From NCBI RefSeq assembly GCF_964194155.1, contig NC_135888.1, forward strand, positions 112,592,001 through 112,656,000: 64,000 nucleotides of DNA, given 5' to 3'. Made by a program: the position numbers and the translations under genes. This document shows positions 2,780-64,000 of the stretch, piece by piece (the first letter of the stretch is position 1; each line of letters starts with the position of its first letter). Under the pieces are notes generated by a model. It was given only the letters and a program-made list of their open reading frames with translations, was not told the DNA's origin and searched no databases. Source of the DNA: Cetorhinus maximus (Eukaryota).

Positions 2780-5385
2780 TGTGTAGCCTTGACTCTCCAT
2801 TTACCTCACAATACCTCTGCAGACATCAGTTTGATTAATCACTCCTTCACTGAAACATTTTGTGTCCTTGTCCCCACAAAACCTCCACTATCTCACATTT
2901 TGGTTATTCCCCCCGAATGATCCCTATCCCCAACCTCTTTAATCCAGGATCTAGAATCACTCTGGAGAGCAAAGATAAACTCTGGCTTCTTTTCTCCACT
3001 ACTAAGCATTCCTTAAACCTTCCTCCCTATTCCCCTCATCACCAACAAGTGAGGAACTCATAGACTTCCTTGTCACCAAGATAGAAATTAGCCATTCAGC
3101 TATGCTTGCTGCTCATCCCTTTCCTCTTGCCCCTACATAATTTCTATGAATTCACCTCAGCCACAAGAATCACCTTATGCTCCTCCTTCCACCTAAATAG
3201 CTGACAAACCTTTCTGGTTACCATGCGAGCTGAAATTGTAAATGGTTACCCCCTTTCAGCTATTGTCTCCCTTTCAAAATTATTTTCATCACCACACTCT
3301 GTCAAAAAAATCACCCATGGCCAATCTGTACTTACAAACTTCTTTGCCCCATCTCCAGCCTCCTTTTCCTCATCAAAGTCCTTTGATATCTTTTCACATC
3401 CCAAATCTGCGCCTATCTTTCCCGTAGTGTTTCAATATCTCTAATCTGGCTAAAATGGTCTTATGCAAAGTTACAAATGTGTTGTGACTGTAACCATGGT
3501 GACTTATCCCTCCTTTCCTTCTTCAACCTTGTGCAAACTTCGAAATAGTAAATGACATCATCCTCGACAAACCCCATTCCTGCATTTTCCAGCTTGCTGG
3601 GACTGCCTCATTTGTTTCCACTTTTAGTTATCCGATTGTGGCCAGAGCATCTATATCAGTGGCTTCTGATCCTGTCCCATGCTATTACTGCCAGACTCCT
3701 CCAAGGATCTATCCGTGGCTCCTGCTTTTCCTCATCCATATGCTGTGGTTTTCCTGAATCCATGTGCTGTGGTTTTCCTAAATCATCCACAGACCTGTAG
3801 CCATCTTCCACACATACACTGACAAATCTCTACATCATATTGCTTGATCTTCCCACTGTGTTAGAAAATAGAGATAGTTTAAGTAAGTTTATATTTGTAT
3901 TTCTGGGTGTTAGGAATGAGTTTTAGCTTTGAAGTTTAAGCTTGATTTGTATTTCTGTATCTGTGTGTTAAGGAAGGTCAAATAGAGTTTTAGTTTCACT
4001 TGAAAAGGCTGCTTGCATTTCTAATGAAGAGTTTACGACCCCTATAAAGTAAAAGTAAACACACAAGAGTAGAAAGAATAGTGCTGTTGCCTACCAAGGG
4101 TGGGGGGTGGGGGGTAGATGGTAGTTTCTTCCCACAGACATACACACAGAACTAAAGAAACAGCTATTTTAAGTTCAGTTGAAGTCAGGACCCTAGAGAG
4201 ACCAGACACTGGGAGAGGGAACTGCAGATTTCCCAAAAGAACAAAAAGGTCCCAAGTGAAGAAAACCCTCAAAAATCCAGCAAAGCAGAAGAGGGGAAAG
4301 TCTAAAGGAGACCATGTAGTCAAAGGAAGGACAGGAACTTGGGAAAAGGTCCTGTTAAGTGAAGTTAAGAGTGAGGAGCAGAGAGAGAAAGGCTGCAGGC
4401 TTCAGATTTAAAGTGAGAACAGCTTGCAAGAAAGTTCAAAGAGACAACTGAAGGTCTGTAATTCTTTGCTATGGGTATGTGAAGCAGTGGTGTACTGTTA
4501 AGGCTGAGTTGGTGAGAGCGAGTGCATGCAAGACAGCTTGAATGCATGTGGTGACCGAGGGAAGAGGAACATCAGAAGGAGAGTTCGAAACTCTGGAGGT
4601 GAACCCTTGTGGAAGGTGTCGGAACGAAAGCATCAGTTTGGGAGAAGATTCCAAGGCGAGGTCTTAGAGAGTGGAGATTGGAAACCCTTGTGTAAAGGAT
4701 GGAATTCAGTGAGACTGGTTGGCTCATGGTGTGATAAGCATCTGGGGGGAGTTGAGGAAAGATCCATAGCATCTGTTTGAGGTAGCATCTATCACTTATT
4801 TCGGGATGTGGTGTGTCTGACCACAGAGTGCCATAGGTTTACATGGACTGTATTTACTGTGAACCTTAAAGTATAAGATCGTTTTTGTAACTTGTGTTAA
4901 CCTTACAAATCTGTATACATCTGTAAAGGTATAGCTGTTGGTGAAGGAGTATTGTAATATAGTTCATCTTTTCTTGTTGAATAAATGTTTTATTCTTTTG
5001 TAAAAAAGTTCATCAGTTGACTCCTGTGACTCTGTTCAGTAGCTACTCGCCACATATTTACACAAACAAATAAAAGTTAGGATTTATCAAGCTGGGTTCC
5101 ACTCTGGGATCAGGCTTGGCCAGGTGTAACCCCAGCTGGGGGCAATAACAACTGCATCAATACTGCTCAATTGTTGGACTAATACCCAGCATTGAATAAG
5201 ACACATTTTCCTATAGGTAAACATTGGTATCCACCATCTTCAGCTCTTGTCACAAACTCTATACCCTTTCCACTGACTCCGGTCTCCTCCCTGGATGTTG
5301 TCTCACGCTGGATCAGATATGGAATCCCATTTGAACCAGAACTGAATTTGTGACCCCCATAGCTTCACCATCATAAATACCATGG
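2780..5385 (+). mobile_element. Highly decayed L2-type LINE fragments split by the solo LTR
   Basis: Pyrimidine-rich decayed ORF2-like text (e.g. CTCCAAGGATCTATCCGTGGCTCCTGCTTTTCCTCATC, a PQGS-type motif near 3700), continuing after 5155. Confidence 0.5.
3859..5150 (+). mobile_element. Solo LTR (~1.3 kb)
   Basis: TGTTA...TAACA termini, perfect 4-bp TSD ACTG (3855-3858, 5151-5154), AATAAA near 4980. Second partial copy at 24497-25365. Confidence 0.85.
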
Positions 5386-11097: not shown

Positions 11098-14000
11098 GAA
11101 CCATAGAAAAGTTATGGTGCAGATAGAGGCCATTCAGCCCATCATGTCTGCACTGACCAAAAAGAGAATAAAGAAACTAGCCGCTCATTTTAATCCCTCC
11201 AGCACCTCATCCATAGCCTTGTAGATTTAAGCACTTCAGATGTAGATCCAGGTACCTTTTAAATGAGTTGAGCATTTCGGCCTCAAAAGCCAACTTAGGT
11301 AGTGAATTCCAGACGCTCACCATCCTCTGGGTAAATTAAGTTTTTCCTCATGTCCCCTCTAATCCTTCTACCAATCACCTTAAATCATGCCCCTGGTAAT
11401 TGACCCCTCAGCTAGGGGAAACAAGTCATTCCTGTCTACCCTATCTAGGCCCCTCATAATTTTGGACACCTCAATTAGGTCACCCCCTTAGCCTCCTCTG
11501 TTCTAAGGAAAACAGCCCTAGTCTATCCAATCTCTCCTCATAGCTGCAATTTTCAAGACCTGGCAACATTCTTGTAAATCTCCTCTGTACTCGCACCAGA
11601 GCAATTATGTTCTTCCTGCAATGTGGTGACCAGAACTGCGTACAAAATTCCAGCTGTGGCCTAACCCGTGTTTAATACAGTTTTCATCATTGCATCCCTG
11701 CTTTTGCATTGAATACCTTGGCCAATAAAGGAAAGCATTCCATATGCTTTCTTCACCACCTTGTCCACCTGTCCTGCCACCTTCAAGAACCTGTGGACAT
11801 GCACTCCAAGGTCTCCCACTTGATCAACCCCTCTCAATAACTTCCCGTTTATTGAGTATTCCCTTTCTTTGTTTGCTCTCCCCAAATGTACTCTTTTCCG
11901 GATTGAACTCCATTTGCCACTTCTTCGCCCACTCAACCAAACCATTGGGGAAATTTTTCTCCCCGTTGGGGTGGAAATGCAGGTGCGGGCACGAATAGGC
12001 ACACCTCAGATTGGCGCCCCCGATTGCGGGTGCCATGCCATTTTATGTGGGTGGGCCAATTAAGGCCCGCCCAGCATGACGTCTGCCAGGAAGCGCTATG
12101 CGCTCCTTGTGCAGGCGGGGTGGGGGGAGGGGGTGGAGGGGGGTGGGGGCATGCATGTGAAAGAGCGTACTGATCTCCCTGAGGCTAAGTGCTGCCTCAG
12201 GGAGATCGGCTCCAAATTTAAAAATGTTAAGGAGACGAAAATAAAATTTCCCTGACATGTCCCCTCATGTAACACTGTTACATGAGTTGGGACATGACCA
12301 ACTCTTTTACTGAAACCTTTATTAAATTAAGAATGATGAGGTTGTGGATGAGGTTTCATGCTTTTTCTTAAACCCGCCAGGGCTCCCGGCCTGCCCGCCA
12401 ACCCTAAGGTTGGACGGGCAGGTCCATTAATTATGTTAAGTACTTTTTAAATGGCCTCAATAGGCCATTGACAGGTTGGCGGGTGCACAGCTGATTCAGC
12501 TGCGCCCCTGCCGACCTGAAAATGGAAATGACGCGGGGCGACGTCAGGAGTTCCGCCCCGCTCGCCGACCGGAAGATCCTGCCCTTGATATCATGGAGTC
12601 GACAGCTATCCTCGTCACAATCAACCACACGGCCAATTTTTGTGCCATCTGTAAATTTCTCAATCATGCCTCGCAGATTTAAGTCTAAATCATTAATATA
12701 TACAACAAATAGCAAGGGCCCCAACACTGAGCCCTGTGGAACATCACTGGAAACCATTTTCCATTCGCAAAAACATCCATTGACCATTACCTTTTGTTTC
12801 CTGTCACTGAGCCAATTTTGGATCCAACCTGCCACCTTCCCCTGTACCCCATGAGATCTCACTTTCCTAATCAGTCTGCCATGTGGGACCTTGTCAAATG
12901 CCTTACTGAAATCTATGTAGACAACATCCGTTGCACTGCCCTCATCATTCCTCCTTGTTACTTCCTCAAAAAATTCTATTAAGTTAGTAAGACACAATCT
13001 TCCCCTAACAAAACCATGCTGACTGTCCCTGATCAATCCGTGCCTTTCTAAGTGACAGTTTATCCTGTCTCTCAGAATTGTTTCCAATAATTTGTCCACT
13101 ACTGAAGTCAGACTGACCGGCCTATAATTTTCTGGCCTATCCCTCGCACCCTTTTTAAACAATGGTACAATGTTTGCAGGCCTCCAATCCTTTGGGACCT
13201 CACCTGTATCTAGTGAGGATTGGAAAATGATCCTCAGAGCATCCGTTATTTCCTCCCTGGCTTCCTTCAACGGCCTGGGACACAATCCATCTGGCCCTGG
13301 TGATTTATCCACCTTCAAGGATGCCAGTCCTTCCAGTACTTCCTCTCTCACTATGCTTATTATATCTAATATTTCACACTCCTCCTCTTTAACTAGAATG
13401 TCTGCATCATCCCTCTCCTTAGCGAAGATAGAGACAAAGTACTCATTGAGAACCCTACCTATATCTTCTGCATCACAGATTACTATGCACATCTCTGATA
13501 AGCACTCCCTTTCCTTAGTTATTCTCTTGCTCTTAATGTACTGGAAAAACATCTTAGGATTTTCTTTGATTTTACTTGCCCATATTTTTTCATATTCTCT
13601 CTTTGCTTTTCTAATTTCCATTTTTACTTCACCCCTGTACCTTTTATACTCCTCTAGGCTTTCTACAGTAATAAGTCTTTTGTGACTGTCATAAGCTTTC
13701 TTTATCTGCCTTATTTTGGCCTGTCTGTTTCTGGATAACCAGGAGGCTCTAGATTTGGCAGTACCACCCTTTGTCTTTGTGAGGACATGTCTACACTATG
13801 CCCGTATAATCTCACCTTAGAATGCCTCCCACTGACTTGACACAGTTTTTCCTTCTAATAGCTGTATCTAGTCCACTCTCATCAATTCACCTCTTAGCTT
13901 TGTAAAATTTATCTTCCTCCAATTTAGAACTTTTACCCCTGTTCTATCTTTGCCCTTTTCCATAATGATGCTAAATCTAACTATACTATGGTCACTATCT

Positions 14001-26890: not shown

Positions 26891-27266
26891 AGGGAACGGT
26901 GGCACAGTGGTTTGTTTACTGGACTAGTAACCGAGAGGCCTGGACTAAAGAGCTGGAGAAATGAGGTTAAATCTCACAACCTGTGCTGCTGCAGAATAAA
27001 AATTTAGTTAATTAAATAAGCGGAATAAAAAGTTAGTATCGGTAATGGTGACCATGAAGCTACTAGATTGTTGCAAAAACCTGTCTAGTTTACTACCGGG
27101 AGGGAAATCTATTTTCCTTACCTGGCTTGGCCAAGATGTCACTCCAGACCCACTGCCATGGTTGGCTCTTAGCTGCCTAGCAAACCATCAGTTAAAGGCA
27201 GTTAGGGGTGGGCAATAAATACTGGCCTTGATGGTGTTGCACAGATCCCATGAATAAATAAAAAAA
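26891..27266 (+). mobile_element. tRNA-headed SINE (same family as 453-1441)
   Basis: GGTGGCACAGTGG..GGACTAGTAACC head; GGGCAATAAATACTGGCC..ATCCCATGAATAAATAAAAAAA tail. Confidence 0.8.
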
Positions 27267-29862: not shown

Positions 29863-32705
29863 TAAGACCATAAGACCATAAGGCATAGGAACAGAAATTA
29901 GGCCATTCGGGCCATCGAGTCTGCTCCGCCATTCAATCATGGCTGATAAGTTTCTCAACCCCATTCTCCCACCTTCTCCCCGTAACCTTTGATCCCCTTA
30001 CCAATCAAGAACCTATCTATCTCGGTCTTAAATACACTCAATGACCTGGCCTCCACAGCCTTCTGTGGCAATGAATTCCATAGATTCACCACTCTCTGGC
30101 TAAAGAAGTTTCTCCTCATCTCTGTTATAAAAGGTCTTCCCTTTAATCTGAGGGTGTGCCCTCGGGTCCTATTCTCTCCTACTAATGGAAACATCTTCCT
30201 CATGTCCACTCTATGTAAGTTTCAATCAGATCCCGCCTCATCCTTCTAAACTCCATCGAGTATAGACCCAGAGTCCTCAAACGTTCCTCATATGTTAAGC
30301 CTTTCATTCCTGGGATCATTCACGTGAACCTCCCCTGGACCCTCTCCAGGGCCAGCACATCCTTCCTGAGATACAGGGCCCAAAATTGCTCACAATATTC
30401 TAAGTATGGTCTGACCAGAGCCTTATAAAGCCTCAGCAGCACATCCCTGCTTTTATATTCTAGTCCTCTCAAAATAAATGCCAACATTGCATTTGCCTTC
30501 CTAACTACCGACTTAACCTGCAAGTTAACCTTAAGCGAATCCTGGACTAGGACTCCCAAGTCTCTTTGCACTCCAGACTTCTGAATTCTCTCCCCATTTA
30601 GAAAATAGTCTATGCCTCTATTCTTCCTACCAAAGTGTATGACCTCACACTTCCCCACGTTGTATTCCATCTGCCACTTCTTTGCCCATTCTCCTAACCT
30701 GTCTAAATCCTTCTGCAGCCTCCCCGCCTCCTCAATACTACCTGTCCCTCCACCTATCTTTGTATCATCTGCAAACTTAGCCAGGATGCCATCAGTTCCT
30801 TCATCTAGATCATTAATGCATAAAGTGAAAAGTTGTGGTCCCAACACTGAGCCCTGCGGAACTCCATTAGTCACCGGCCGTCATCCTGAGAAGGACCCCC
30901 TTATCCCCACTCTCTGCCTCCTGCCAGACAGCCAATCTTCTATCTATGCTAGTGCCTTGCCTCTAACACCATGGGCTCTTATCTTACTGAGCAGCCTCCT
31001 GTGCGGCACCTTGTCAAAGGCCTTCTGGAAGTCCAAGTAGATAACATCCATTGGCTCTCCTTTGTCTAACCTACTCATTACCTCCTCAGAGAATTCTAAC
31101 AAATTTGTCAGGCATGAACTCCCCTTGATGCAACCATGCTGACTTTGCCCAATTTTACCATGCACTTCCGAGTATTCTGAAATCTCATCCTTAATAATGG
31201 ACTCTAAAATCTTACCAACGACCGAGGTCAGGCTAATCGCCCTGTAATTTCCCGTCTTTTGCCTCACTCCCTTCTTAAACAGGGGGGTTACATTAGCGAT
31301 TTTCCAGTCCTCTGGGACCCTCCCTGACTCCTGTGATTCCTGAAAGATCACCACTAACGCCTCCACTATCTCTTCAGCTATCTCCTTCAGAACTCTGGGG
31401 TGTAATCCATCTGGTCCAGGTGATTTATCCACCTTCAGACCTTTCAGTTTTCCTAGCACCTTCTCCTTGGTAATGGCCACCATACTCACCTCTGCCCCCC
31501 GGACTCTCTTGAACTTTGGGGATGTCACTCGTGTCTTCCACTGTGAAGATTGACGCAAAGTACCTATTCAGTTCCTCCGCCATTTCTTTGTTCCCCACTA
31601 CTACTTCTCCAGCTTCATTTTCCAGCAGCCCAATGTCCATTTTTGCCTCTCTCTTACCCTTTATATATCTAAAAAACTCTTGCAATCTTCTTCTATATTA
31701 CTGGCTAGTTTACCCTCATATTTAATCTTCTCCCTCCTTATTTCTTTTTTAGTTGTCCTCTGTTGGTCTTTGTAGGCTTCCCAATCCCCTGGTTTCCCAC
31801 TGCTCTTCGCCACATTGTATGCTTTCTCTTTAGCTTTTATGCTGTCCCTGATTTCCCTTGTCAGCCATGGTTGCCTCGTCCTCCCTTTAGTATGCTTCTT
31901 CTTCCTAGGGATGAATTTTTGCTGTGTCTCCCAAATTACTCCCAGAAACTCCTGCCATTGTTGTTCCACTGTCTTTCCTGCGAGGCTAATCTCCCAGTCA
32001 AATCTGGCCAGCTCCTCCCTCATGCCTCTGTAGTTGCCTTTATTCACTATAATACCGTTACATCTGATTCCAGCTTTTTCCTTTCAAATTGCAGGGTAAA
32101 TTCTATCATATTATGGTCACTTCCTCCTAAGGGTTCCTTCACCTTAAGCTCCCTTATCAAATCTGCCTCATTACACATCACTAAATCTAGAATTGCCTGT
32201 TTCCTAGTGGGCTCCACCACAAGCTGCTCCAAAAAGCCATCTCGTAGACATTCCACAATTCCTTTTCTTGGGATCTACTACCAACCTGATTTTCCCAGTC
32301 TACCTGCATATTGAAATCCCCCATGATCACTGTAACCTTGCCTTTCTTAAGCACCTTTTCTATCTCCTGGTGTATCTTGTGCCCCACATCCTGACTACTG
32401 TTCGGAGGCCTGTACATAACTCCCATTATGGTTTTTTTAACTTTGCGGTTCCTCAACTCTACCCACACAGATTCTACATCATCTGACCCTACATCATTTC
32501 TTGTTATCGATTTAATTTCATTTCTTACTAACAAAGCAACCCCACCCCCTCTGCCAACCTGCCTATCTTTTCGATAGGATGTATATTCTTGGATATTTAG
32601 CTCCCAGTCCTGATCCCCTTGCAGCCATGTCTCCGTGATGCCCACCACATCATACCTGCCAATTTCAATCTGCGCCACAAGCTCATTTACCTTATTTTGT
32701 ATACT
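29863..32705 (-). mobile_element. CR1 LINE, nearly complete ORF2 (APE endonuclease + RT) with frameshifts
   Basis: ORFs 32187..32723 (GITETWL, YRPP, GDFN), 32047..32256 (SDH), 30944..31558 and 30320..30874 (PQGSVLGP, FADD); tail repeat (TAAGACCA)n. Confidence 0.95.
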
Positions 32706-34157: not shown

Positions 34158-35260
34158 ATCATAGAGTCATAGTCATAGAGTCATAGAGGTCTACAACAGA
34201 GAAAAAGGCCCTTTGGCCCATCGAGTCTGCACCGGTCAAACAAGGACCGAATTATTCTAATCCCATGTTCCAGGACTAGGCCCATAGCCTTGTATGCCAT
34301 GGCATTGCAAGTGCACATCCAAATGCTTCTTAAATGTTATGAGAGTTTCTGCCTCTACCACCCTTTCAGGCAGTGAGTTCCAAGTTCCCACCACCCTCTG
34401 GATGAAAAATTATTCTTCCCATCCCCTCTAAACCTCCTGCCCTTTACATTGAATCTATGCCCCCTGGTTATTGATCCCTCCACCAAGGGGAAGAGTTCTT
34501 CCTGTCTACCCTATCTATGCCCCTCATAATTTTATACACTTCAATCATGTCCCCCCTCAATCTCCTCTGCTCCAAGGAAAATAACCCCAGTTTATCCAAT
34601 CTCTCCAAATAATTAAAACTCTCCAGCCGAGGCAACATCCTGGTAAATCTCCTCTGCATTCTCTCTAGTGCAATCACATCCTTCCTATAATGCGGATTCC
34701 AGAACTGCACGCAACTCTAGCTGTGGCCTAACCAGCGTTTTATACAGTTCCAGCATAACCTCCCTGCTCTTATATTCTATGCCTCAGCTAATAAAGGCGA
34801 GTATCCCATATGCCTTCTTAACCACCTTATCTACCTGTCCCACTACCTTAAGGGACCAGTGGACATGCACACCAAGGTCCCTCTGATCCTCGGTACTTCC
34901 CAGGGTCTTACCATTCATTGTGTATTCCCGTGCCTTGTTTGTCCTGCCCAAGTGCATCACCTCACACTTATCCTGATTAAACTCCATTTGCCACTGATCA
35001 GCCCATCTGACTAGCCTGTCTATATCCTCCTCTAATTTAAGGCTATCCTCCTCACTATTTACCACCCCACCAATTCTCGTGTCATCCGCGAACTTACTGA
35101 TCAATCCTCCTACATTCAAGTCTAAATCATTTATATATACCACAAACAGCAAGGGAACCAACACCGATCCCTGTGGAACCCCACTGGACACAGGCATCCA
35201 GTCACAAAAACACCCTTCAACTATCACCCTCTGCTTCCTGCCACTCAGCCAATTCTGGAT
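34158..35260 (-). mobile_element. 5'-truncated CR1 (RT C-terminal half and 3' UTR)
   Basis: ORFs 34784..35227 (PQGSVL, FADD) and 34468..34710; tail (CATAGAGT)n. Confidence 0.92.
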
Positions 35261-38200
35261 CTAATAAAGGACTGGGAACCAGTGAATGTGGCCAGTAGGA
35301 CTAAGTGGAAGGGCAGGCAGGGGGAAATTACTGAACACAGTGGGACTGGGGGTCTGAAATGCATTTGTTTCAATGCGAGAAGTATAACAGGCAAGGTAGA
35401 TGAGCTTAGAGCTTGGATTAGTACTTGGGACTATGATGTTATTGCTATTACAGAGACTTGGTTGAAGGATGGACAGGATTGGCAGATAAACGTTCCAGGA
35501 TTTAGATGTTTCAGGCAGGATAGAGAGGGATGTAAAAGATAAAAGCAAAAAACTGCGGATGCTGGAAATTGAAAACAAAAACAAAAATACCTGGAAAAAC
35601 TCAACAGGTCTGGCAGCATCTGCGGAGAGGAGCACAGTTAACATTTTGAGTCCGCATGACTCTTCAACAGAACTAAGGAAAAATAGAAAAGGGGTGAAAT
35701 ATAAGCTGGTTTAAGGGGGGTGTTGGGACAAGAGAGCTGTTTAGAGGGCCAGTGATAGGTGGAGACAACCAAAAGATGTCACAGACAAAAGGACAAAGAG
35801 GTGTTGAAGGTGGTGATATTATCTAAAGGAATGTGCGAATTGAGGGTAGAAAGCAGGACAAGCAAGGTACAGATAGCCCTAGTGGGGGTGGGGTGGGGTG
35901 AAGGAATCAAAAAAGGCTAAAAGGTAGAGATAAAACAATGGATGGAAATACATTTAAAAATAATGGAAATAGGTGGGAAAAGAAAAATCTATATAAATTA
36001 TTGGAAAAAACAAAAAGGAGGGGGAAAAATCAGAAAGGGGGTGGGGATGGAGGAGAGAGTTCATGATCTAAAATTGTTGAACTCAATATTCAGTCCGGAA
36101 GGCTGTAAAGTGCCGAGTCGGAAGATGAGGTGCTGTTCCTCCAGTTTGCATTGAGTTTCATTGGAACAATGCAGCAGGCCAAGGACAGACATGTAGGCAT
36201 GAGAGGAAGGTGGAGTGTTGAAATGGCAAGCGACAGGGAGGTCTGGGTAATACTTGCGAACAGAACGAAGGTGATCTGCAAAGCGGTCACCCAGACTGCG
36301 TTTAGTCTCTCCAATGTAGAGGAAACTGCATTGGGAGCAACGAATTCAGTATACTAAGTTGAGGGAAGTACAGGTGAAATGCTGCTTCACTTGAAATGAG
36401 TGTTTGGGCCCGTGGACGGTGAGGAGAGGGGAAGTAAAGGGGCAGGTGTTGCATCTTCTGGGGTTGCATGGGAAGCTGCCGTGGGAGGGGGTTGAGGTGT
36501 AGGGGGTGATGGAGGAGTGGACCAGGGTGTCACAGAGGGAACGATCCCTACTTAATACCACCAGGGGGGTTGAAGGGAAGATGTGTTTGGTGGTGGCATC
36601 ATGCTGGAGTTGGCGGAAATGGCGAAGGATGGTCCTTTGAATGCGGAGGCTGGTGGGGTGATAAGTGAGGACAGGGGGGACCCTATCATGTTTCTGGGAG
36701 GGAGAAGAAGGTGTGAGGGCGGATGCGCGGGAGATGGGCCGGACACGGTTGAGAGTCCTGTCAACCACCTTGGGTGGAAAACCTCAGTTAAGGAAGAAGG
36801 AGGACATGTCAGAGGAACTGTTTTTCAAAGTGGCATCATCAGAACAGATACGACGGAGGCGAAGGAACTGAGAGAATGGGATGGAGTCCTTACAGGAAGC
36901 GGGGTGTGAGGAGCTGTAGTCGAGGTAGCTGTGGGAGTCAGTAGGCTTGTAATGGATATTGATGGACAGTCTATCACCAGAAATTGAGACAGAGAGGTCA
37001 AAGAAGGGAAGGGAAGTGTCAGAGATAGACCATGTGAAAATGATGGAGGGCTGGAAATTAGAAGCAAAATTAATAAAATTTTCCAGGTCCAGACGAGAGC
37101 ATGAAGCAGCACCGAAGTAATCATAGATGTACCGGAGAAAGAGTTGTGGGAGGGGGCCGGAGTAGGACTGGAACAAGGAATGGTCTACATACCCCATAAA
37201 GAGACAGGCATAGCTGGGGCCCATGCGGGTACCCATAGCCACACCTTTTATTTGGAGGAAATGAGAGGAGTTTAAGGAGAAATTGTTCAGTGTGAGAACA
37301 ATTTCAGCCAGACGGAGGAGAGTAATGGTGGATGGGGATTGTTCGGGCCTCTGTTCAAGGAAGAAGCAGAGAGCCATCAGACCATCCCGGTGGGGGATGA
37401 AGGTGTAGAGGGATTGGACGTCCATGGTGAAGAGGAAGCAGTTGGGGCCAGGGAACTGGAAATTGTTGATATGATGTATCATATGGGATGTAGAAGAGAT
37501 GGGGGAGTTGCACTGCTGGTTAAGGGGAATATCACAGCTGTACGACAGGAGGACACCTCTTTGGGCTCATGCAGCGAGGCAATATGGGTAGAGCTCCGGA
37601 ATAGGAAGGGGGCAGTCACAATGTTGGGGGTTTACTATAGGCCTCCCAGTTGCCGAAGGGAGATTGAGGAACAGTTATGTAGGCAGATTTTGGAAAGATG
37701 TAAAAGCAATAGGGTTGTTGTAGTGGGTGATTTTAACTTTCCCTATATTGACTGGGAATCACTTAGTGCTAGGGGTTTGGATGGTGCAGAATTTGTAAGG
37801 TGCATCCAGGAGGGCTTCCTGAGACAATATGCAGATAGTCCAAGTAGGGAAGGGGCAATACGGGACCTGGTATTAGGGAATGAACCCGGCCAGGTTGTCG
37901 AAGTTTCAGTAGGAGAGCATTTCGGGAAAAGTGACCATAATTCAGTAAGTTTCAAGATACTGGTGGATAAGGAAAACAGGAGTCCTCAGGTTAAGGTGCT
38001 TAATTGGGGGAAGGCTAATTATAACAATATTAGGCAGGAACTGAGGAATCTAGACTGGAGGCGGATGTCTGAAGGCAAATCAACAACTGACTTTCAAACG
38101 TCAGTTGATAAGAATTCAGGACCGGCATGTTCCTGCTAGGATGAAGGATAAGCATGGCAAGTTTCAGGAACCTTGGATAACGAAAGATATTGTGAGATTA

Positions 38201-39290
38201 GTCAAAAAGAAAGGGGAAGCATTCGTAAGGGCTAGAAGGCTGGGAACAGATGAAGCCCGTGGAGAATACAAAGAAAGTAGGAAGAAACTTAAGCAAGGAG
38301 TCAGGAGGGCTAAAAGGGATCATGAAAAGTCACTGGCAACCAGGATTAAGGAAAATCCCAAGGCCTTTTATACATATGTAAAGGGCAAGAGGGTAGTCAG
38401 GGAAAGGGTGGGCCCACTCAGGGACAGAGGTGGGAATCTGTGTGTGGAGCCTGAAGAAATGGGAGAGATACTGAATGAATACTTCTCATCAGTATTCACC
38501 AAAGAGAAGGACTTAGCGGCCGATTTGTCTAGGGAAGAGTGTGTAGATAGCCTGGATCATGTTGAGATCAAAAAAGAGGAGGTGTTAGGCATCTTGAAGA
38601 ATATTAAGGTGGATCAGTCCCCAGGGCCAGATGGGATATACCCCAGAGTACTGAGGGAGGCAAGCGAAGAGATTGCTGGGGCCTTGACAGAAATCTTTGT
38701 ATCCTCATTGGCTACGGGTGAGGTCCCACAGGACTGGAGATTGACCAATGTTGTTCCATTATTTAAGAAGGGTAGCAGGGATAATCCAGGAAATTACAGG
38801 CCGGTGAGCCTTACGTCAGTGGTAGGGAAATTATTGGAGAAGATTCTTCGTGACAGGATTTACTACCATTTGGAAGCAAATGGGCGTATTAGTGAGAGGC
38901 AGCATGGTTTTGTGAAGGGGAGGTCATGTCTCACTAACTTGATCGAGTTTTTCGAGGAAGTGACATAGATGATCGACGATGGAAGGGCAGTGGATGTTAT
39001 ATACATGGATTTCAGTAAGGCCTTTGACAAGGTCCCTCGTGGCAGACTGGTACAGAAGGTAAAATCGCACGGGATCAGAGGTGAGCTGGCAGGATGGATA
39101 TAGAATTGGCTTGGTCATAGAAGACAGAGGATAGCAGTGGAAGGGTGCTTTTCTGAATGGAGAGCTGTGACTAGTGGAGTTCCTCAGGGATGAGTGCTGG
39201 GACCTTTGCTGTTTGTGGTATACATAAATGATTTGGAGGAAAATGTAACTGGGCTAATTAGTAAGTTTGCAGACGACACCAAGGTTGGAG
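35261..39290 (+). mobile_element. CR1 ORF2 (EN to FADD), 3'-truncated, split by Penelope 35540-37484
   Basis: FNARSI..AITETWL (35282..35542) continues as RDGGVALL..YYRPP..GDFN..SDH (37485+) and RT 38105..39290. Confidence 0.93.
35540..37484 (-). mobile_element. Penelope-like element (RT + GIY-YIG), 5'-truncated
   Basis: ORF 36784..37482 (MDVQSLYT, GVAMGT, LRYIYDYF, IHYKPT), CxxC region, GIY-YIG remnant (YIGETKR..DRFADH); about 13-bp TSD GGGATGTA(A/G)AAGA (35527-35539, 37485-37497). Confidence 0.92.
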
Positions 39291-47591: not shown

Positions 47592-47948
47592 GTTGGGAAT
47601 GGTATTGTCATTGGATTTATTTTCCAGAGACCCAGGGTATTGTTCTGGGGACCTGAGTTCGAATCCCACCATGGCAGATGGTGAACTTTGAATTCAATAA
47701 AAAATCTGGAATTGAAAGTCTAACGATGACCACGAAACCATTGTCGATTGTCGTAAAAAGTCATCTGGCTCATTAATGTCCTTCAGGGATGGGAATCTGC
47801 CGTCCTCACCTGGTCTGGCCTACATGTGACTCCAGACCCACAGCAATGTGGTTGACTCTTAAATGCCTCTGAAAAGGGTAATTAGGGATGGGCAATAAAT
47901 GCTGGCCTAGCCAGTGTTGCCCACAACCCATGGATGAATAAAAAAAAG
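47592..47948 (+). mobile_element. tRNA-headed SINE (same family as 453-1441)
   Basis: B box GAGTTCGAATCCC, conserved body and GGGATGGGCAATAAATGCTGGCC tail. Confidence 0.85.
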
Positions 47949-50860: not shown

Positions 50861-51369
50861 GGGGAAGTAGTGGCATAGTGATAGTGTCACTGGGCTAGTA
50901 ATCCAGACACCCAGGGTAATGCTCTGGGGATAAAAGCAAAATACTGCGGATCCTGGAAATCTGAAACAAAAACAGAAAATGCTGGAAAAGCTCAGCAGGT
51001 CTAGCAGCTTCTGTGGAGAGAGAAGCAGAGTTAACGTTTTGAGTCCGTATGACCCTTCTTCAGACCCTTCAAATGCTCTGGGGATCCGGGTTCGAATCCC
51101 ACCACAGCAGATGGTGGAAATCAAATTAATTAAAAATATGGAATTAGAAATCTAATGATGACCATGAAACCATTGCTGATTATCATAAAAACCTACCTGG
51201 TGACTCCACAGCAATGTGGTTGCTCCTTAAATGCTTTCTGAAGTGGCCGAGCAAGCCACTCAGTTGTATCAAGCTGTTACAGAAAATTGGACATACACCA
51301 CATGGACTGTGGCAGTTCAAGAAGGCAGTTCACCCCCAGTGATACACACATCCCATGAATAAAAAAAAA
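50861..51369 (+). mobile_element. tRNA-headed SINE variant, split by Penelope fragment 50932-51071
   Basis: A box TGGCATAGTG, B box GGTTCGAATCCC; retains extra LINE-derived sequence on both sides of its junction. Confidence 0.8.
50932..51071 (-). mobile_element. Short Penelope terminal insertion
   Basis: 14-bp TSD AATGCTCTGGGGAT (50918-50931, 51072-51085); begins just before a CTGAAGA hammerhead core. Confidence 0.8.
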
Positions 51370-51502: not shown

Positions 51503-54207
51503 TTCTCTTTTTCATTCACGGCCCAGCCAGCAAAGCCAGCATTTATTGCTGATCCCTAGTTGCCCTTGAGAAGGAGATGGTGAGCTGCCTTCCTGAACTG
51601 CTGCAGTGAGTATAGGTACACCCACAGTGCTGTTAGGAAGGGAGTTCCAGGATTTTGACCCAGTGACAGTGAAGCAACGGCGACATATTTCCAAGTCAGG
51701 ATGTTGAGTGACTTGGAGGGGAACTTCCAAGTGGTGGGGTTCCCATCCATCCTCTGCCCTTGTCCTTCTAGATGGTAGTGGTCATGGGTTTGGGAGGTGC
51801 TGTCTAAGCAGCCTTGGTGAATTCCTACAATGCATCTTGTAGATGGCACATACTGCTGCTACTGTGCGTCGGTGGTGGAATGAGTAAATGTTTATGGATG
51901 TGGTGCCAATCAAGCAGGCTGCTTTGTCCTAGACTGTATCAAGCTTCTTGAGTGTTGTAGGAGCTGCAGTCATCCAGGCAAGTGGGCAGTATTCCATCAC
52001 ACTCCTGGCTTGGGCCTTGTAGATGGTGGACAGGCTTTGGGGAGTCAGGAGAGGAGTTACTCACCTTGCAGGATTCCTAGCCGCTGACCTGCTCTTGTAG
52101 CCACAGTATTTATCTGGCTAGTCCAGTTCAGCTTCTGGTCAATGGTAGCCTCCAGGATGTTGATAGTGGGGATTCAGTGATGATAATGCCATTGAACATC
52201 AAGGGGAGATGGTTAGATTCTCTCTTGTTGACAGTCACTCTCACCTCACCTCCGGAGTTCAGCTATTTTGCCCATGTTTGAACCAAGGCTGTAATGAGGT
52301 GAGGAACTGAGTGGCCCTGGTGGAACCCAAACTAAGCATCAGTGAGCAGGTTATTGCTAAGCAAGTGCTGCTTGATAGCCCTGTTGATGACCCCTTCCAT
52401 TACTTTACTGATGATTGAGAGTAGACTGATGGGGCGGTAATTGGTCAGGTTGGATTTGTCCTGCTTTTTGTGTGCAGGACATACCTGGGCAATTTTCCAC
52501 ATAGCCAGGTAGATGCCAGTGTTGTAGCTGTACTGGAGCATCTTGGCTAGGGGCGCAGCAAGTTTTGGAGTACAAGTCTTCAGTACTATTGCCGGAATAT
52601 GGTCAGGGCCCGTGGCCTTTACAGTATCCAGTGCCTTCAGCCGTTTCTTGATATCACACGGATTGATACGAATTGGCTGAAGACTGGCATCTGTGATGCT
52701 GGGGACCTCCAGAGGAGGCTGAGATGGATCATCCACTCAGCATTTCTGGCTGAAGATTGTAGCAAATGTTTATCTTTTACATTGATTTGTTGGGCTTCCC
52801 CCTCATTGACAATGGGGATATTTGTGGAGCCTCCTCCTCCAATGAGTTGTTTAATTGTCCACCACCATTCACGACTGGATGTGGCAGGACTGCAGAGCTT
52901 AGATCTGATCCGTTGGTTGTGTGATCGCTTAGCTCTGTCCATTACTTGTTGCTTATGCTGTTTTACATGCAAGTAGTCCTGTGTTATAGTTTCACCAGGT
53001 TGACACCTCATTTTTAGGTATGCCTGGTGCCGCTCCTGGCATGCCCTTCTGCACTCTTTATTGAACCAGGGTTGATCCCCTCGCTTGATGGTAATGGTAG
53101 AGTGGGGGATATGCTGAGCCATGAGGTTACAGATTGTGTTCAAGTAAAATTCTGCTGCTGCTGATGGCCCAGAGCACCTCATGGGTACCCAGTCTTGAGT
53201 TGCTAGATCTGCTCGAAATCTATCCCATTTAACATGGTGGTAGTGCCACATAACACAATGGAATGTATCCTCAATATGAAGCGGGACTTCGTCTCCACAA
53301 TGGCTGAGGTCAAGTCTTTTAGGATTCGGCCAGCTGGGTCAGTAGTGGTGCTATATTGAAGTAGCCCACCCAGAGTACATTCAGCACCCTTGCCACCCTC
53401 AGTGCTTCCTCCAAGTGGTGTTCAACATGGAGGAGCACTGATTCATCAGCTGAAGGAGGGCAGTACGTGGTAATCAGCAGGAGGTTTCCTTGCCCACATT
53501 TGACTGATGCCATGAAACTTCATGGGGTCCGGGGTCAATGTTGCGGGCTCCCAGGGCAACTCCCTCCTGACTGTATACCGCTGTGCCACCACCTCTGCTG
53601 GGTCTGTCCTGCCAGTGGGACAGGACATACCCAGGGATGGTAATGGTGATGCCTGGGACATTATCTGTAAGATATGATTCCATGAGGATGACTAAATCAG
53701 GCTGTTGCTTGACTAGTCTGTGAGACAGCTCTCCCAATTTTGGCACTAGCCCCCAGATGTTAGTAAGGAGGACTTTGCAGGGGCGACAGGGCTGAGTTTA
53801 CCATTGTCGTTTCTGGTGCCTAGGTCGATGCCGGGTGGTCTGGCAGGTTTCATTCCTTTTTTGAGGCTTTGAAGCAGTTTGATACAGCTGAGTGGCTTGC
53901 TAGGCCATTTCAGAGGGCATTTAAGAGTCACTCTGTGGGTCTGGAGTCACATGTAGGCCAGACTAGGTAAGGAAAATTTCCTTCTCTCCCTAAGGAGGAA
54001 GGGCAAGTAAGGAAGAGCATTAGGTTTTTTACAATAATCAACAATGATTTCATGATCATCATTAGACTTTTAATTCCAAATTTTTATTGAATTCAAATCC
54101 CACCATCTGCTGTGGAGGGATTCAAACCCGGGGTTTGGACCCAGGGTATCACTCTGGGTCTCTGGATTACTAGTCCAGTGGCAATACCACCATGCTATCG
54201 CCTCCCC
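51503..54207 (-). mobile_element. Non-LTR retrotransposon (CR1/L2/Jockey-group) with a tRNA-derived 5' end and a single EN-RT ORF; RT core deleted near 52230
   Basis: EN: KVLLTNIWGL, VILMESYL, DRPSRGGG, TTYCPPS, WVGYFN. RT N-part: KATGPDHIP, NYRPISLLS. C-terminus ..KAAHHLLLKGN*. Head with A/B boxes at 54207-54115. Confidence 0.9.
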
Positions 54208-57765: not shown

Positions 57766-58784
57766 CTGTATAGAGATTTGTTTATTCTCCACAAGCTTCC
57801 CTTTAATGAAATCTTGCAATAAAAGTTTGTACAGAATGAGGGTGTAGTTATAAGTAGGTGAATATTGTAAGACATGGGCGCTAAATTATGCCAGTTTTTC
57901 AGGCATTATGCATCCAAATAAGAGCCAAAGAGCCTGAGATATGAATGCCCATTTCTGATGGGAAGCACACAGAACTCTATCTTGGTAAAGGAGTTTGAGC
58001 GCCACCTAATGGCTGGCAGCAGCATTTGGAATAGCAAGTTGATGACAGAGCGTGGAATCTTGATTTGAAAACATCACTGCCATTTTCCAATTCCCTCATA
58101 CCAGTCTTAATCTCACAAAGCTGAACTTGACCTTGAACGGAATGAAGCAACCTACACCAACATTATTTCAAGGGATCATGGATATTAAAAATAGGAGCTG
58201 GAATATATCATGTGGCCATTTAATAAGGTCACAGCTTATCTTCTATTTCAACTGTACCTCCCCATTTCCCTTGATTTTCTTAATATTCAAAAACCCATCA
58301 AACACTGCCTTGAATATATTCAGTGACTGAGCATTCACACCTTTCTTGTCCAGAGAATTTCAAAGAATAGCAATCTTTTTAGTGAAGAAATTTCTCCTTA
58401 TTTCGTTCATAGCCTGAGACAGTGAGCCCGTGTTCTAGACTCTCCAGCCAAGAGAAACATCCTCTGAGATCCACTCTGTTAAGCCCTTTAGGAATTTTAT
58501 GATGGGGAAATTAATTATATAAATTAAGAACACTGTGTGGGTCACCCAGATAGCAGTTTGCGGTGTTGCCTAACCCCGGGAATTGGCATCAATCTGTGCC
58601 GTGCCGTGCCATTAGAAGCAGTTTTATGCAAACTAATTTCTCCCCCAATATGTTTCAATGGGACTTTTTAAAATTCTTTCACAGGATGTGGGCATCACTG
58701 ACTTTGTTGCCCTAAGTGCCCTTGAGAAGGCAGTGGTGAGCCACCTTCTTGAGCCGCTGGAGTCCATGCAGTGTAGATACACCC

Positions 58785-61700
58785 CATTATGTATTCGCTA
58801 GTGTGCATAATATCTTGTGTAGCATAGTTATCTTAGAGCAATGCAGAGATGACACCAGTTCTAAATTTACAAGTTTATTTATAGTACTTCAAAATATCTG
58901 CACTTACAGGATTTCTACACACATGCTCTCAGCCCAGATCCAGGTCTGTTTTGAGAACCTTCTGTATGGAGTCAGTTATTTAACTCTCTAGCTCCATCCA
59001 CAGGCTTAAGCAATCAAGCAACATGAACATTGATCGATGAATAGACTAACACAATCAAACACAGATCAATTAAACTATTGAACACCACATCTTTTCCCTC
59101 TTTTCCTTAAAGACATTATTTTAAATTAAATCATCCTAAACATATATAGACAAAGTAATTTCTTAGCATTCAACTTGTCTGTAATTTCTAAGTACACAAA
59201 TAGTCTTTGAGATACAAAGGTTTCTTAGGTCTGCAATTAGATCTACAATTTTGAGGTTATATGATAGTAGCACCACTAAGCTTGTCAGTTTGCATGACCC
59301 TGCGAGATACTCTAACTCAAAGTTGTATTGATGAAGATGATCTGACCATCTGTAGATGCATAGAGGTCAATGACCAGATCTTGAGGTAGCTAACAATGTA
59401 GCGCTGGGTGATCAGTGCAGAGAGTGAACTTCCTACCATAGACATACATGGACCATTGTTCACATGTGTAGATACGGGCTAGTGCTTCTTGCTCACCAGT
59501 ACAGAATTTGTATTCAGTTTGTGATAACAGGCATGACGTGTAAATGATTAGTCGCTCACTTCTTTCAATGTAACGTGAGCATACAGCTCCAGTTGCTCCA
59601 GTTCCCAATGCATCTGTTGTGACATACGTATATACATCTTGACTGAAATGTGTGAGGACTGGCGGAGGTGCTATCTTCACCTTTAACATTTCGAACGCTA
59701 TTTGCTACACCATTGTCCATTCCCATTGTGCATCTTTGCACAGTAGCTTCCGAAGGGGCTCCATGATCTCTGCATCCTTAGGAACTAAGTTGTGATAAAA
59801 GGTTGGTAGTACCAAGGAACGATGCCAACTGTTTCACATTAGATGCTGTTGGAAGCGCATGAATGGCTGCAACATTGTTGTGTGTAGACTTTACTCCAGC
59901 TGCTGTCACTCTGTACCCTAGAAAGTCAATCTTGGTGTCACAAATGTGCATCTGTCCTTGTTGAGCGTCAAATTATGTTATGCAAGATGAGCGAGTACTG
60001 CTGATAATCGCTGATCATGTTCTGCTTTGTCCCTTATATGGACAACAGCATTATCAAGTAGGTTGAGCATCCTCTCAACATTTGACAAGACTGAAGAAAC
60101 AATCTTCTGGAGTGAGCCAGGTATTGAACTTAGTCCATAGGGCATTCTGTATTGAAACACACCTTCATGAGTAACAAAAGCTGTAAGATATGGAGTGCAG
60201 GCACAATGGGCTAAATGGCCTCTTTCTGTGCCATAACTTTTCTATAGCTCTATAGGGACTTTGCTCTTCTTGAGGTATCAGAAGATAGCTCCATTGCATA
60301 TTGAGCTTTATGAATACTGTGGAATCGTGAAATGATGCTGACAGTTCTTCGATTGTAGGAAAATGTGGAATGATTGCTTTGTCAACCGTTTTAGAGTCAA
60401 CGTGTAATCTAAGTTCTCCATTTTCTCATCATGCAATGACTAGATTTGACATCCACAACAATGAATTGATTCACATAATGATGCTCTTCTAGTTATTTGA
60501 GCTCCTGTGACACTTCGGTACCGATTGAAAATGCCAACAGTCTAAAATTTTGTGAAATTGGTAGAATTAATGTATCAACTGCCCTTGACATCAAGGTAAC
60601 ATTTGACTGAGTGCGGCATCAAGGAGCCCTAGCAAAACTGGAGTCAATGGGAATCAGGGGAAAACTCTCCGCTGGTTGGAGTCATACCTAGCACAAAGAA
60701 AGATGGTTGTGGTTGTTGAAAGTCAGTCACCTCAGCTCCATATGGACTAGCTATATAAATACTGTGGCTACAAGAGCAGGTTAGAGGCTAGGAGTCGTGC
60801 GATAAGTAACTCACCTCCTGACTCCCCAAAGCCTGTCCACCATCTACAAGGCACAAGTCAGGAGTGTGATGGAATACTCCCCACTTGCCAGGATAAGTAC
60901 AGCTCCTACAACACTGAAGAAGCTGGACACCGTCCAGGACAAAGCAGTCTGCTCGATTGACACCACATCCACAAACTTTCATTCCCTCCACCACCAACGC
61001 AAAGTAGCAGCAGTAAGTACCATCTACAAGATGCACTGCAGGAATTCACCAAGGCTCGTTAGACAGCACCTTCCAAACCCACGACTACCACCACCTAGAG
61101 GGACAAGGGCAGCAGATAGATGGGCACACCACCACCTGGAGGTTCTCCACCCCCCCAAATCACTCACCATCCTGACTTGGAAATATATCGCTGTTCCTTC
61201 ACTGTTGCTGGATCAAAATCCTGGAACTCACTTCCTAACAGCATTGTGGGTGTACCTACACCACATGGACTCCAGAGGTTCAAGCAAGCAGCTCACCACC
61301 ACCTTCTCAAGGGCAACTAGGGATGGGCAATAAATGCCGGCCCAGCCAGCAAAGCCCACATCCCGTGAATGAATTTTTAAAAAATGTGAGGAGCATGACA
61401 GTACACCTTGACTGCCCCAAAGCCAGTAAATAAGGAAATATAATGGCATGTATAGTCTGTGTCATCAGTCACATTAATGTTTGCTCTGGTGGTGAGTCAA
61501 GTTTGAATCCAAGCCTATCAAAAAGGTTTACCCCCATAAGACTTCTGCCTTTACTACATAAAAAGTGAACCTGTGTATGGTGACTTTTTGTCGTGGACTA
61601 GAACTGTGATTGTTCCCTAAACCAGAATGATAGAGTCGTTATAAGCTTGAAGAGTGTCTGTCACAGGTGTGAGAGAGAATTGAGTAAAATATCAATGATA

Positions 61701-62998
61701 GAGTTTGTCACTCAAAAGAGATGCTTTCGTGCCAACATTGATGAGAAGTGAAACTGAGATGCCCACAATTTCAACTGAGCACTCCTTAAAGTGGCCTGGT
61801 GTTTTACCTCTAGTGATGCTATATACATGTTGTGCCTCTCAGGAAGAACTCCTCAGCTTGTTGAATGATGAAGTCTCCTTCTTGGATGACCGGCACACCT
61901 TTGCAAAATGGTTCCACTTTAAGCATGAGTTGCATTTTTTCCTTCATGCTGGACATGGCATTGTGACTCAATGAGTATTTCCACAATTTGAACACAGTTT
62001 TGAAGGTATCTGACCATGATGGGGCGCATGTTGATGAAGTTGCTGAGGTATCCTTGTCTGTAACCCCTGCACTTGAGCTGGCTGGGCAAGCTATGTCTGC
62101 AACCCTGAGTCTAAGGGTGCATTGCTGCATAACCTCTTCATATCTAACATGGCAGATTTGATTTGGACTGACAAGTTTGTGGCTTTCTCCAAGGTTAAAT
62201 CATCGCCCTCCATGAGGATATGTTCCCTAATTCATGGAATTGAAGTCTTTTCAATTAGTTGATCACTAATTAGTTCATTGGTTAGTGTGTCAAGTTTACA
62301 TGTGGAAGCCAATTGCTGCAACGCTGCCACATATTGTTTAATGTGCTCACCATTTTCCTGGGATCTCTGATGGAATGTATATCGTTCAATCATCACACTT
62401 TTCTTTGACCTGAAGTATTTTTTGAGAGCACGTACCACCGTATCAAATGTAGACGTATCTTCTGTAAGTTGCTTGAATATTCGCTGGCCTTTTGCTCTGA
62501 GACAATGTACAAATATTGCCTTCTTACAGATAGCTGCTACATCTGGGCTCTCCATCTCAATAGTGAGAAAGTAGGTCTTTACGTCTTGAACCTAAAATCC
62601 AGGTCATGGCATGGGAGGATCCCCCGGCGATGAAAGAAATGCTTCTAGAGCTGGTAAAGTTAAACTTTTCTCAACCAACCTCGTTGTCAATTTGTTACAT
62701 TTATGTCAGTTTGCTGTATAGCTTATATATCAGATTTATCCCAGAGCAATGCAGAATGACACTCACTCTAAATCCACAATAAGTTTATTTACAGTACTTT
62801 AAAATATCTTCACTCACAGGATTCCTTCATGCATGGTCTCAGCCCAGATCTGTGCCTGTTTCTGAAACCTTTTGCATGGAGTCGGTTATTAACCATCTAG
62901 CTCCACCCACTGGCTTAGGCACTCAAGCACACTTAACATAATTCAGTGAACAAGCTAACACAGTCAAACACAGATCGATTAAACAATTGTACACAACA
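58785..62998 (-). mobile_element. Decayed Gypsy (Mag-like) LTR retrotransposon; LTRs 62693-62998 and 58785-59089
   Basis: 5-bp TSD CACCC, PBS-like TGACAACGAGG, PPT AAGGAAAAGAGGGAAAAGA. Gag (ERYTFHQRSQENGE, CPA..KCNSCLKWNHFAKVC), RT (FQYRMPYGLSSIP, LLDN), RNase H (VTTDA..E.EALA..TDH). Confidence 0.88.
60578..61385 (+). mobile_element. Internally deleted 3' part of the 51503-type LINE inserted in the Gypsy pol
   Basis: TALDIK..HQGALAKLESMGI..WLESYL, MEYSPLA..LDTVQDKA, FKQAAHHHLLKGN* and the GGGATGGGCAATAAATGC tail. Confidence 0.88.
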
Positions 62999-63436
62999 CA
63001 CCCACAGTGCTGTTAGGAAGGGAGTTCCAGGATTTTGACCAAGAAACAGTGAAGGAACAACAATGTAGTTCCAAGTCAGGATGGTGTGTGACTTGAAGTG
63101 GAACTTACAGAAGGTGATGTTCCCATGCATCTGCTGCCCTTATCCTTCTTGCTGATAGATGTTGAGGGTTTGTCAAATGAGCCTTGGTGCGGTGCTGCAG
63201 TACACTGTGTATATGGTGCACACTGCTGCCACTGTGCGTTGATGATGGAGGAAGTGAATGTTTAAGATGGTGGATGGGGTACCGGTCAAGTAGGCTGGTT
63301 TGTCCTGGATGGTGTTGAGCTGCTTGAGTGTTTTTGGAGCAGCACTCACCCAGGCAAGTGGGGAGCATTCTACCACGCCCCTGACTTGTGGCTTGTAGAT
63401 GGTGGACAGGCTTCAGGAGTCAGGAATTGAGTTACT

Positions 63437-64000
63437 CAAGAAAAGGGAAGCATTCGTAAGGGCTAGAAGGCTGGGAACAGATGAAGCCTGTGGAGAATAT
63501 AAACAAAGTAGGAAGAAATTTAAGCAAGGAGTCAGGAGGGCTAAAATGGGTCATGAAAAGTCACTGGCAACCAGGATTAAGGAAAATCCAAAGGCCTTTT
63601 ATACATATGTAAAAAGCAAGGGGGTAGCCAGGGAAAGGGTAGGCCCACTCAGGGACAGAGGTGGGAATCTGTGTGTGGAGCCAGAAGAAATGGGAGAGAT
63701 ACTAAATGAATACTTCTCATCAGTATTCACCAAAGAGAAGGACTTAGAGGTCGATTTGTCTAGGGAAGAGTGTGTAGATAGCCTGGATCATGTTGAGATC
63801 AAAAAAGAGGAGGTGTTAGGTGTCTTGAAGAATATTAAGGTGGATAAGTCCCCAGGGCCAGATGGGATCTACCCCAGAGTACTGAGGGAGGCAAGGAAGG
63901 AGATTGCTGGGGCCTTGACAGAAATCTTTGAATCCTCATTGGCTATGGGTGAGGTCCCAAAGGACTGACGAATGGCCAATGTTGTTCCATTGTTTAAGAA
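63437..64000 (+). mobile_element. CR1 ORF2 fragment running off the window; same subfamily as 38206-38770
   Basis: Near-identical by eye to 38206-38770; KSPGPDGIYPRVL. Confidence 0.92.

Follow-up and report, generated by a model that had tools for sequence, protein, structure and literature searches.

A decayed Zenon-1 LINE of sharks and rays with a tRNA-like head and the likely transcription of its source copies by Pol III

The locus studied here raises the question of whether a protein-coding LINE can carry a tRNA-type promoter as its own 5′ end. The window (the whole stretch of 64,000 nucleotides of Cetorhinus maximus DNA that was analyzed) contains an element on the minus strand, with its 5′ start at 54207/54206, which the original prediction described as a LINE with a tRNA-derived Pol III head and no ORF1. 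The A box, the stem-loop with AGT and the B box were all found on that strand at the places where they had been read (Table 1). The head was said to run, about 420 nt later, into the first APE motif, and KVLLTNIWGL indeed begins 431 nt from the element start, its K codon being at 53776, with no ORF1-sized frame between head and motif in the window copy. The reading that we favor is that of a decayed Zenon-1 copy, i.e. a single-ORF LINE of the CR1 group with a tRNA-like head, whose source copies were, on balance, likely transcribed by Pol III.

Table 1. Features of the element and of related sequences in the window
Feature	Position	Strand	Remarks
tRNA-like head	54114..54207	-	A/B boxes, stem-loop; family similarity stops sharply at 5′ edge
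A box-like TAGCATGGTGG	54197-54187	-	within head
Anticodon-type stem-loop CTGGACTAGTAATCCAG, with AGT	54178-54162	-	within head
Extra arm	54161-54131	-	between anticodon-type loop and B box
B box-like GGTTTGAATCC	54128-54118	-	within head; decayed in window copy
SINE-like body / 5′ UTR	53854..54113	-	3′ end is an A-rich tract
77-nt leader	53777..53853	-	ATG at 53853-53851 conserved, not in EN frame
APE endonuclease (EN)	53305..53776	-	frameshifted; ~136 nt gone near 53310
EN-RT linker	52769..53281	-	
Reverse transcriptase (RT), N-terminal part	52232..52766	-	~421 nt of RT core missing at 52231/52230
RT thumb / C-terminal region	51556..52230	-	to family stop TAG 51558-51556; stops, frameshifts
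3′ UTR and short A-rich tail	51503..51555	-	predicted stem-loop in family; partly deleted in window copy
Short SINE-like relative	47600..47947	+	head (family 18-295) joined to LINE tail (3217-3290)
Decayed head+tail relative beside the element	50871-51338	+	opposite strand; unrelated ~140-nt insert at 50931-51071
Further short or 5′-truncated family pieces	455-543, 1244-1441, 27043-27266, 60578-61374	+	
Further short or 5′-truncated family pieces	58710-58784, 62998-63437	-	
CR1-type LINE fragments	12593-13444, 30242-31519, 34715-35260	-	used as T-run control
CR1-type LINE fragment	37576-39286	+	used as T-run control

The window copy is dead. Compared to the family majority, the deletion in the RT removes the motifs LDIKAAFD, GVPQGSVLGP and FADD, and the one in the EN removes LDLIL and SDH, to which stops and frameshifts are added. 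The loss of the RT core near 52230 had thus been recognized correctly in the original prediction, while the loss in the EN had been overlooked. The remains of both domains match their Pfam profiles below the curated cut-offs (Exo_endo_phos, E 0.0015; RVT_1, E 0.0039). The B box of this copy lacks its C, and there are two T4 runs absent from the family majority.

Concerning the junction of head and EN, a query of the 4.0-Gb host genome gave 10,051 candidates, of which 40 were scored and 40 matched. The junction was present in 29/29 other loci examined, in one-piece alignments running from position ≤38 into the endonuclease, so that it is not peculiar to this locus. Queries with the EN alone or with the linker protein alone were used to take out the bias of a query containing the head: 15/29 and 19/29 copies, respectively, extended up to the first 45 nt of the head, and the remaining ones ended at scattered points. 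The upstream flanks resembled each other in just 14 of 1653 pairs. Neither another 5′ UTR nor an ORF1 was thus found upstream of the truncated copies with these two queries, and full-length members with a different 5′ end, envisaged beforehand as a counter-case, did not appear. A majority sequence built from 18 longer copies plus the window copy defines a family unit of 3.3 kb that has a sharp 5′ edge and one ORF and ends in a short 3′ UTR with A tail; A5+ lies no more than 20 nt from the terminus in 68 of the 101 3′ ends, pooled from long and short elements, as is proper to a poly(A) tail. No convincing target-site duplications were seen in 19 copies. A real family is therefore supported, in which head and EN are joined at a fixed point and both an ORF1 and an alternative 5′ UTR are missing. 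The family can be counted as abundant, CR1-Zenon-like LINEs figuring among the intronic repeats of the whale shark.

By sequence comparison, the window element is identified as a decayed copy of the published elasmobranch Zenon-1 family. Elasmobranch Zenon LINEs are described as being without ORF1 and with a poly(A) tail (PMC13343379, 2026); Zenon-1 and the window family are alike in their single APE-RT ORF without ORF1, which is the mark of Zenon, and in their A tail (PMC13343379). CarCar_Zenon-1 is 3288 nt long versus about 3290 nt for the family, with about 7 differences from the family majority in the first 400 nt as counted by eye, and nothing structural differs (PMC13343379). In their first 400 nt, the consensuses CarCar, RhiTyp, ScyCan, HypSab and SquAca, from white shark, whale shark, catshark, stingray and dogfish, all open with this head, the boxes being retained and the spacer altered across the five species as judged by eye, whereas coelacanth and hagfish Zenons are without the head in that same span (PMC13343379). 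The elasmobranch consensuses are given as more than 84% identical between species (PMC13343379). A quick RT tree with 49 rows, none of them a named Zenon sequence, sets the family apart from shark CR1 with weak deep support. The family and its missing ORF1 are already published, and the tRNA-type head has apparently gone unremarked: the text of PMC13343379 makes no mention of tRNA, promoter, pol III, polymerase III or Deu, nor its supplement of tRNA, and no description of a tRNA-headed autonomous LINE, or of the head on Zenon, was found in the literature that was searched.

The likeness of the head to a tRNA is judged from its boxes, its arm and its alignment score, and is in this sense putative. 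Against 62 genomic tRNAs, the family head reached a score of 38, equaled by only 1/500 shuffles, while none of 31 other windows of the element exceeded 30. ARAGORN found no tRNA in the 64-kb window, and Rfam gave no tRNA match on the window copy or on six loci with better copies, so a head of the SINE2 kind, related to a tRNA and carrying both boxes, is recognized on alignment while these two tools give no call. The tRNA-derived head of the original prediction thus stands on boxes and score, and its resemblance to tRNA-Thr is unproven: Gln(CTG/TTG) scored 38 and Thr(AGT) 36.5, and scores so nearly equal, in an incomplete panel of 11 anticodon labels from which many isotypes are absent, do not distinguish the two. 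The 5′ edge of the element is about 9 nt ahead of the A box, as in a tRNA-type start. Among dead copies, the boxes (A 0.93, B 0.96) are preserved no better than the body (0.93), which is what neutral decay predicts. SacSINE1/DeuSINE and AmnSINE2 may be named as tentative candidates for the identity of the head. Regarding the extra arm, in the part of the SquAca (dogfish) consensus that was inspected by eye it looks as if the anticodon arm had been duplicated in tandem, and head copies without it also occur. A tandem array of tRNA-Gln genes with mixed CTG/TTG anticodons is found at G000:C35:9027628-9037967 (L213).

The majority frame starting from the KVLL motif is open for 934 codons except for one TGA at a CpG-type site. 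Leaving CpG-type changes aside, 37/59 shared variants are synonymous versus 21% expected, and 37 of the 59 are at third codon positions. This synonymous excess argues that the source lineages were selected for the protein; so, at the level of sequence, it can be said that the ORF is shown to have been under purifying selection, and the element would have been autonomous. A test of the consensus for an intact ORF had been suggested beforehand: the frame is open and selected, save for the TGA in the majority. Among the loci examined (40-150 candidates scored per search) there was no intact full-length ORF, the longest family-matching frame being 477 aa, and there were no young copies, the best 5′ identity to the majority being 94.9%. 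Published counts for intact ORF2 are 0/2313, 3/612 (reported for the stingray), 1/1419 and 0/59.

Concerning the start of translation, there are 12 ATGs upstream of the EN and none is in frame with it; the first in-frame Met is 285 codons into the open frame, beyond the EN. The leader ATG, 77 nt upstream of the EN and following the A-rich tract, is intact in 92/100 copies and offset by 2 mod 3 relative to the EN in 77/100. It is also seen in the five published consensuses, with an identical offset in the stingray (by eye, first 400 nt). Read in the EN frame, the leader gives an Arg-rich peptide in the family. This frame is favored by the phase of CpG in the leader (7/8 at codon position 1) and by the basic in-frame leaders of relatives P0040 and P0045, while codon usage slightly favors the ATG frame (0.148 vs -0.055). 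In close relatives, a Met in frame with the EN is found just ahead of it, and some of these relatives have a basic leader like the EN-frame peptide. Inspection of the leader by eye showed no canonical -1 slippery heptamer. An upstream TTG considered as the start is doubtful, as a TAA comes after it in 45/100 copies. We infer that translation may have proceeded either by non-AUG internal entry or from the AUG followed by a -1 shift.

T-runs are avoided on the sense strand, and this avoidance is specific for the strand and for T. The 3.3-kb family majority has no TTTT versus 4.2 expected from mononucleotide shuffling (P 0.01), an absence that is not significant when dinucleotides are preserved (P 0.17) or when synonymous codons are shuffled (P 0.09-0.10); the ratio of observed to expected TT is 0.71, a general TT deficit. 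T4+ Pol III terminators are thus absent from the majority, as the original prediction expected, whereas such runs of the other three nucleotides are present (A 14, C 11, G 8). In the CDS there are 4 T3+ versus 12.4 under synonymous shuffling, a count to which none of 2000 shuffles fell; runs of A, C or G showed no depletion in the same shuffling, and TTT was not depleted in three natural CR1 ORFs. Natural copies contain 79 T4+ in 213 kb from 330 segments (0.37/kb, observed/expected 0.23), and other LINE segments 81 in 22.8 kb from 38 segments (3.55/kb, observed/expected 1.27), a contrast per kb that amounts approximately to one sequence versus one other LINE family, because the copies stem from few sources. 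The control segments are mostly CR1, including about four that resemble decayed Zenon pieces and were kept in; the comparison group is therefore mostly CR1, as opposed to head-less Zenon coding DNA. The protein itself contains 1.93% Phe, under all 45 full-length relatives (minimum 2.32, mean 4.13; 24-41% identity), and none of the dipeptides FF, FL, FY, FC or FW, which number 2-17 in those relatives.

The tRNA-type promoter, the avoidance of T-runs and the lack of an in-frame ATG together point to a protein-coding element likely made by Pol III. According to this proposal, TFIIIC and Pol III would start at the first G by means of the internal A/B-box promoter, and the transcript would span the 3.3 kb and continue into the flank, Pol III being able to read so far because the T-run terminators were purged. 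Translation of this RNA, which would have no cap, would depend on internal entry close to the A-rich tract, starting either from a non-AUG codon of the EN frame or from the conserved AUG with a subsequent -1 shift. The resulting protein would attach to the 3′ stem-loop and insert the RNA by target-primed reverse transcription. R2 is described as a precedent for the translation of uncapped retrotransposon RNA (PMC6765202). Against the proposal counts the description of Pol III transcripts as short and non-coding (PMC10498592). Contigs from 4/23 runs guessed to be RNA cover the stretch, with strand, start and level not readable from them, and speak neither for nor against expression. To the fuller picture, an autonomous protein-coding Pol III retrotransposon of sharks and rays with a 3.3-kb uncapped RNA purged of U-runs even in its choice of codons and amino acids and devoid of an in-frame AUG, and which spawns SINEs, we would give even chances.

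It could also be that the LINE captured the 5′ end of a SINE long ago and retains it, the source copies having been made by Pol II, either by read-through or from a cryptic promoter lying in head or body; avoiding T-runs would then serve another purpose, for example to keep the RNA from pairing with its A tail, to aid its export or stability, or to help the RT to be processive. This is a tenable explanation that we regard as less probable than the Pol III proposal. The general TT deficit accommodates the absence of TTTT, but only T, and only the sense strand, shows the depletion, which is missing in CR1. The conserved AUG in the leader suits Pol II, while 12 upstream ATGs without any in frame fit poorly with cap-dependent scanning. 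That LINE 5′ ends are described as generally Pol II promoters (PMC5786205) has to be set against a 5′ edge placed like a tRNA-type start and, by eye in the published consensuses, boxes retained between species while the spacer varies.

Two other explanations affect the autonomy and the unity of the element. A long non-autonomous Pol III element, that is, a SINE with a swallowed and untranslated LINE ORF moved in trans by another LINE, would agree with the lack of an in-frame ATG, with the longest frame of 477 aa instead of an intact ORF among the loci examined, and with the low published counts of intact ORF2. It is nevertheless very unlikely: over 934 codons the majority frame is interrupted only by the CpG-type TGA, the elasmobranch consensuses are reported as more than 84% identical between species (PMC13343379), and the selection result (37/59 synonymous) largely refutes it. 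As to the chance insertion of a SINE beside a 5′-truncated LINE, both parts are abundant repeats, but the identical junction in 29/29 other loci and in the consensuses of five species, together with the head-less queries, rules it out for practical purposes.

Coming back to the Pol III proposal, the family also includes short elements. A query with the head alone gave, in 29 loci, 18 LINE-joined copies, 10 short elements and one truncated copy. In the short SINEs, the head is joined directly to the last ~75 nt of the LINE, with recurrent joins at 291/3216 and 314/3212-3215; the SINE-like body is common to both forms up to family position 291 or 314, and at the other end the common part comprises the segment 51503..51555. 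Being short and non-coding, as a SINE2 is, applies only to this head-plus-tail derivative and not to the 3.3-kb LINE. The identity of the head to the LINE majority has a median of 94.7% in short elements (n=14) and 93.8% in LINE copies (n=109), and both ends of the short form match the contemporaneous LINE, as in a SIDE. A head tree of long and short copies was poorly resolved, too weak to order SINE capture and SINE derivation. As the internal promoter would be copied into each full-length insertion, one internal deletion would give a complete SINE; if SINEs arise in this simple way, SINE and LINE would be two lengths of one element.

Known systems share parts of this organization. The lepidopteran Zenon is reported to have short derivatives of its 5′ and 3′ ends too, the SIDE Persaeus, reported as lacking both tRNA homology and a Pol III promoter, while the shark derivative has A/B boxes and is SINE-like (PMC6740152). 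SacSINE1 (PMC5499810) and the bipartite RTE/Vingi SINEs (PMC5786205) likewise combine a tRNA head with a LINE-derived tail, but are described as short and non-coding, unlike the shark LINE; SacSINE1 has, by description, a Deu domain and an L2-like tail (PMC5499810), whereas the tail of the window family is Zenon's own. The single-ORF elements R2 and L1Tc are thought to translate uncapped RNA via an IRES-like 5′ end, R2 being co-transcribed by Pol I and both being freed by an HDV-like ribozyme (PMC6765202); Rfam gave no ribozyme match on the window copy or on the six loci with better copies.

If the Pol III transcription and the translation route that we infer are true, the element is an exception to two rules, namely that the products of Pol III are exclusively short non-coding RNAs and that LINEs use Pol II promoters. 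Cap-independent, non-AUG translation could then be studied on a natural example from a vertebrate, and a single deletion in a tRNA-headed LINE would be a concrete route for the birth of SINEs.

Two minor observations concern the ends and the spread of the family. T4+ followed by A3+, instead of a plain A tail, was seen in 15/101 3′ ends (e.g. L092, L105, L109 and L138); control stretches further out had T4+ in 10/101, so the excess is modest, and such ends could mean A-tract mutation, target preference or terminator remnants. The NCBI-predicted proteins P0001, P0002, P0019 and P0025, from Heptranchias, Heterodontus and Scyliorhinus and annotated as aldo-keto reductase-, storkhead-, anoctamin-7- and cystathionine beta-synthase-like, contain pieces 59-78% identical to the LINE, which indicates that these sharks have the family too and that the pieces are annotation artefacts or cases of exonisation.
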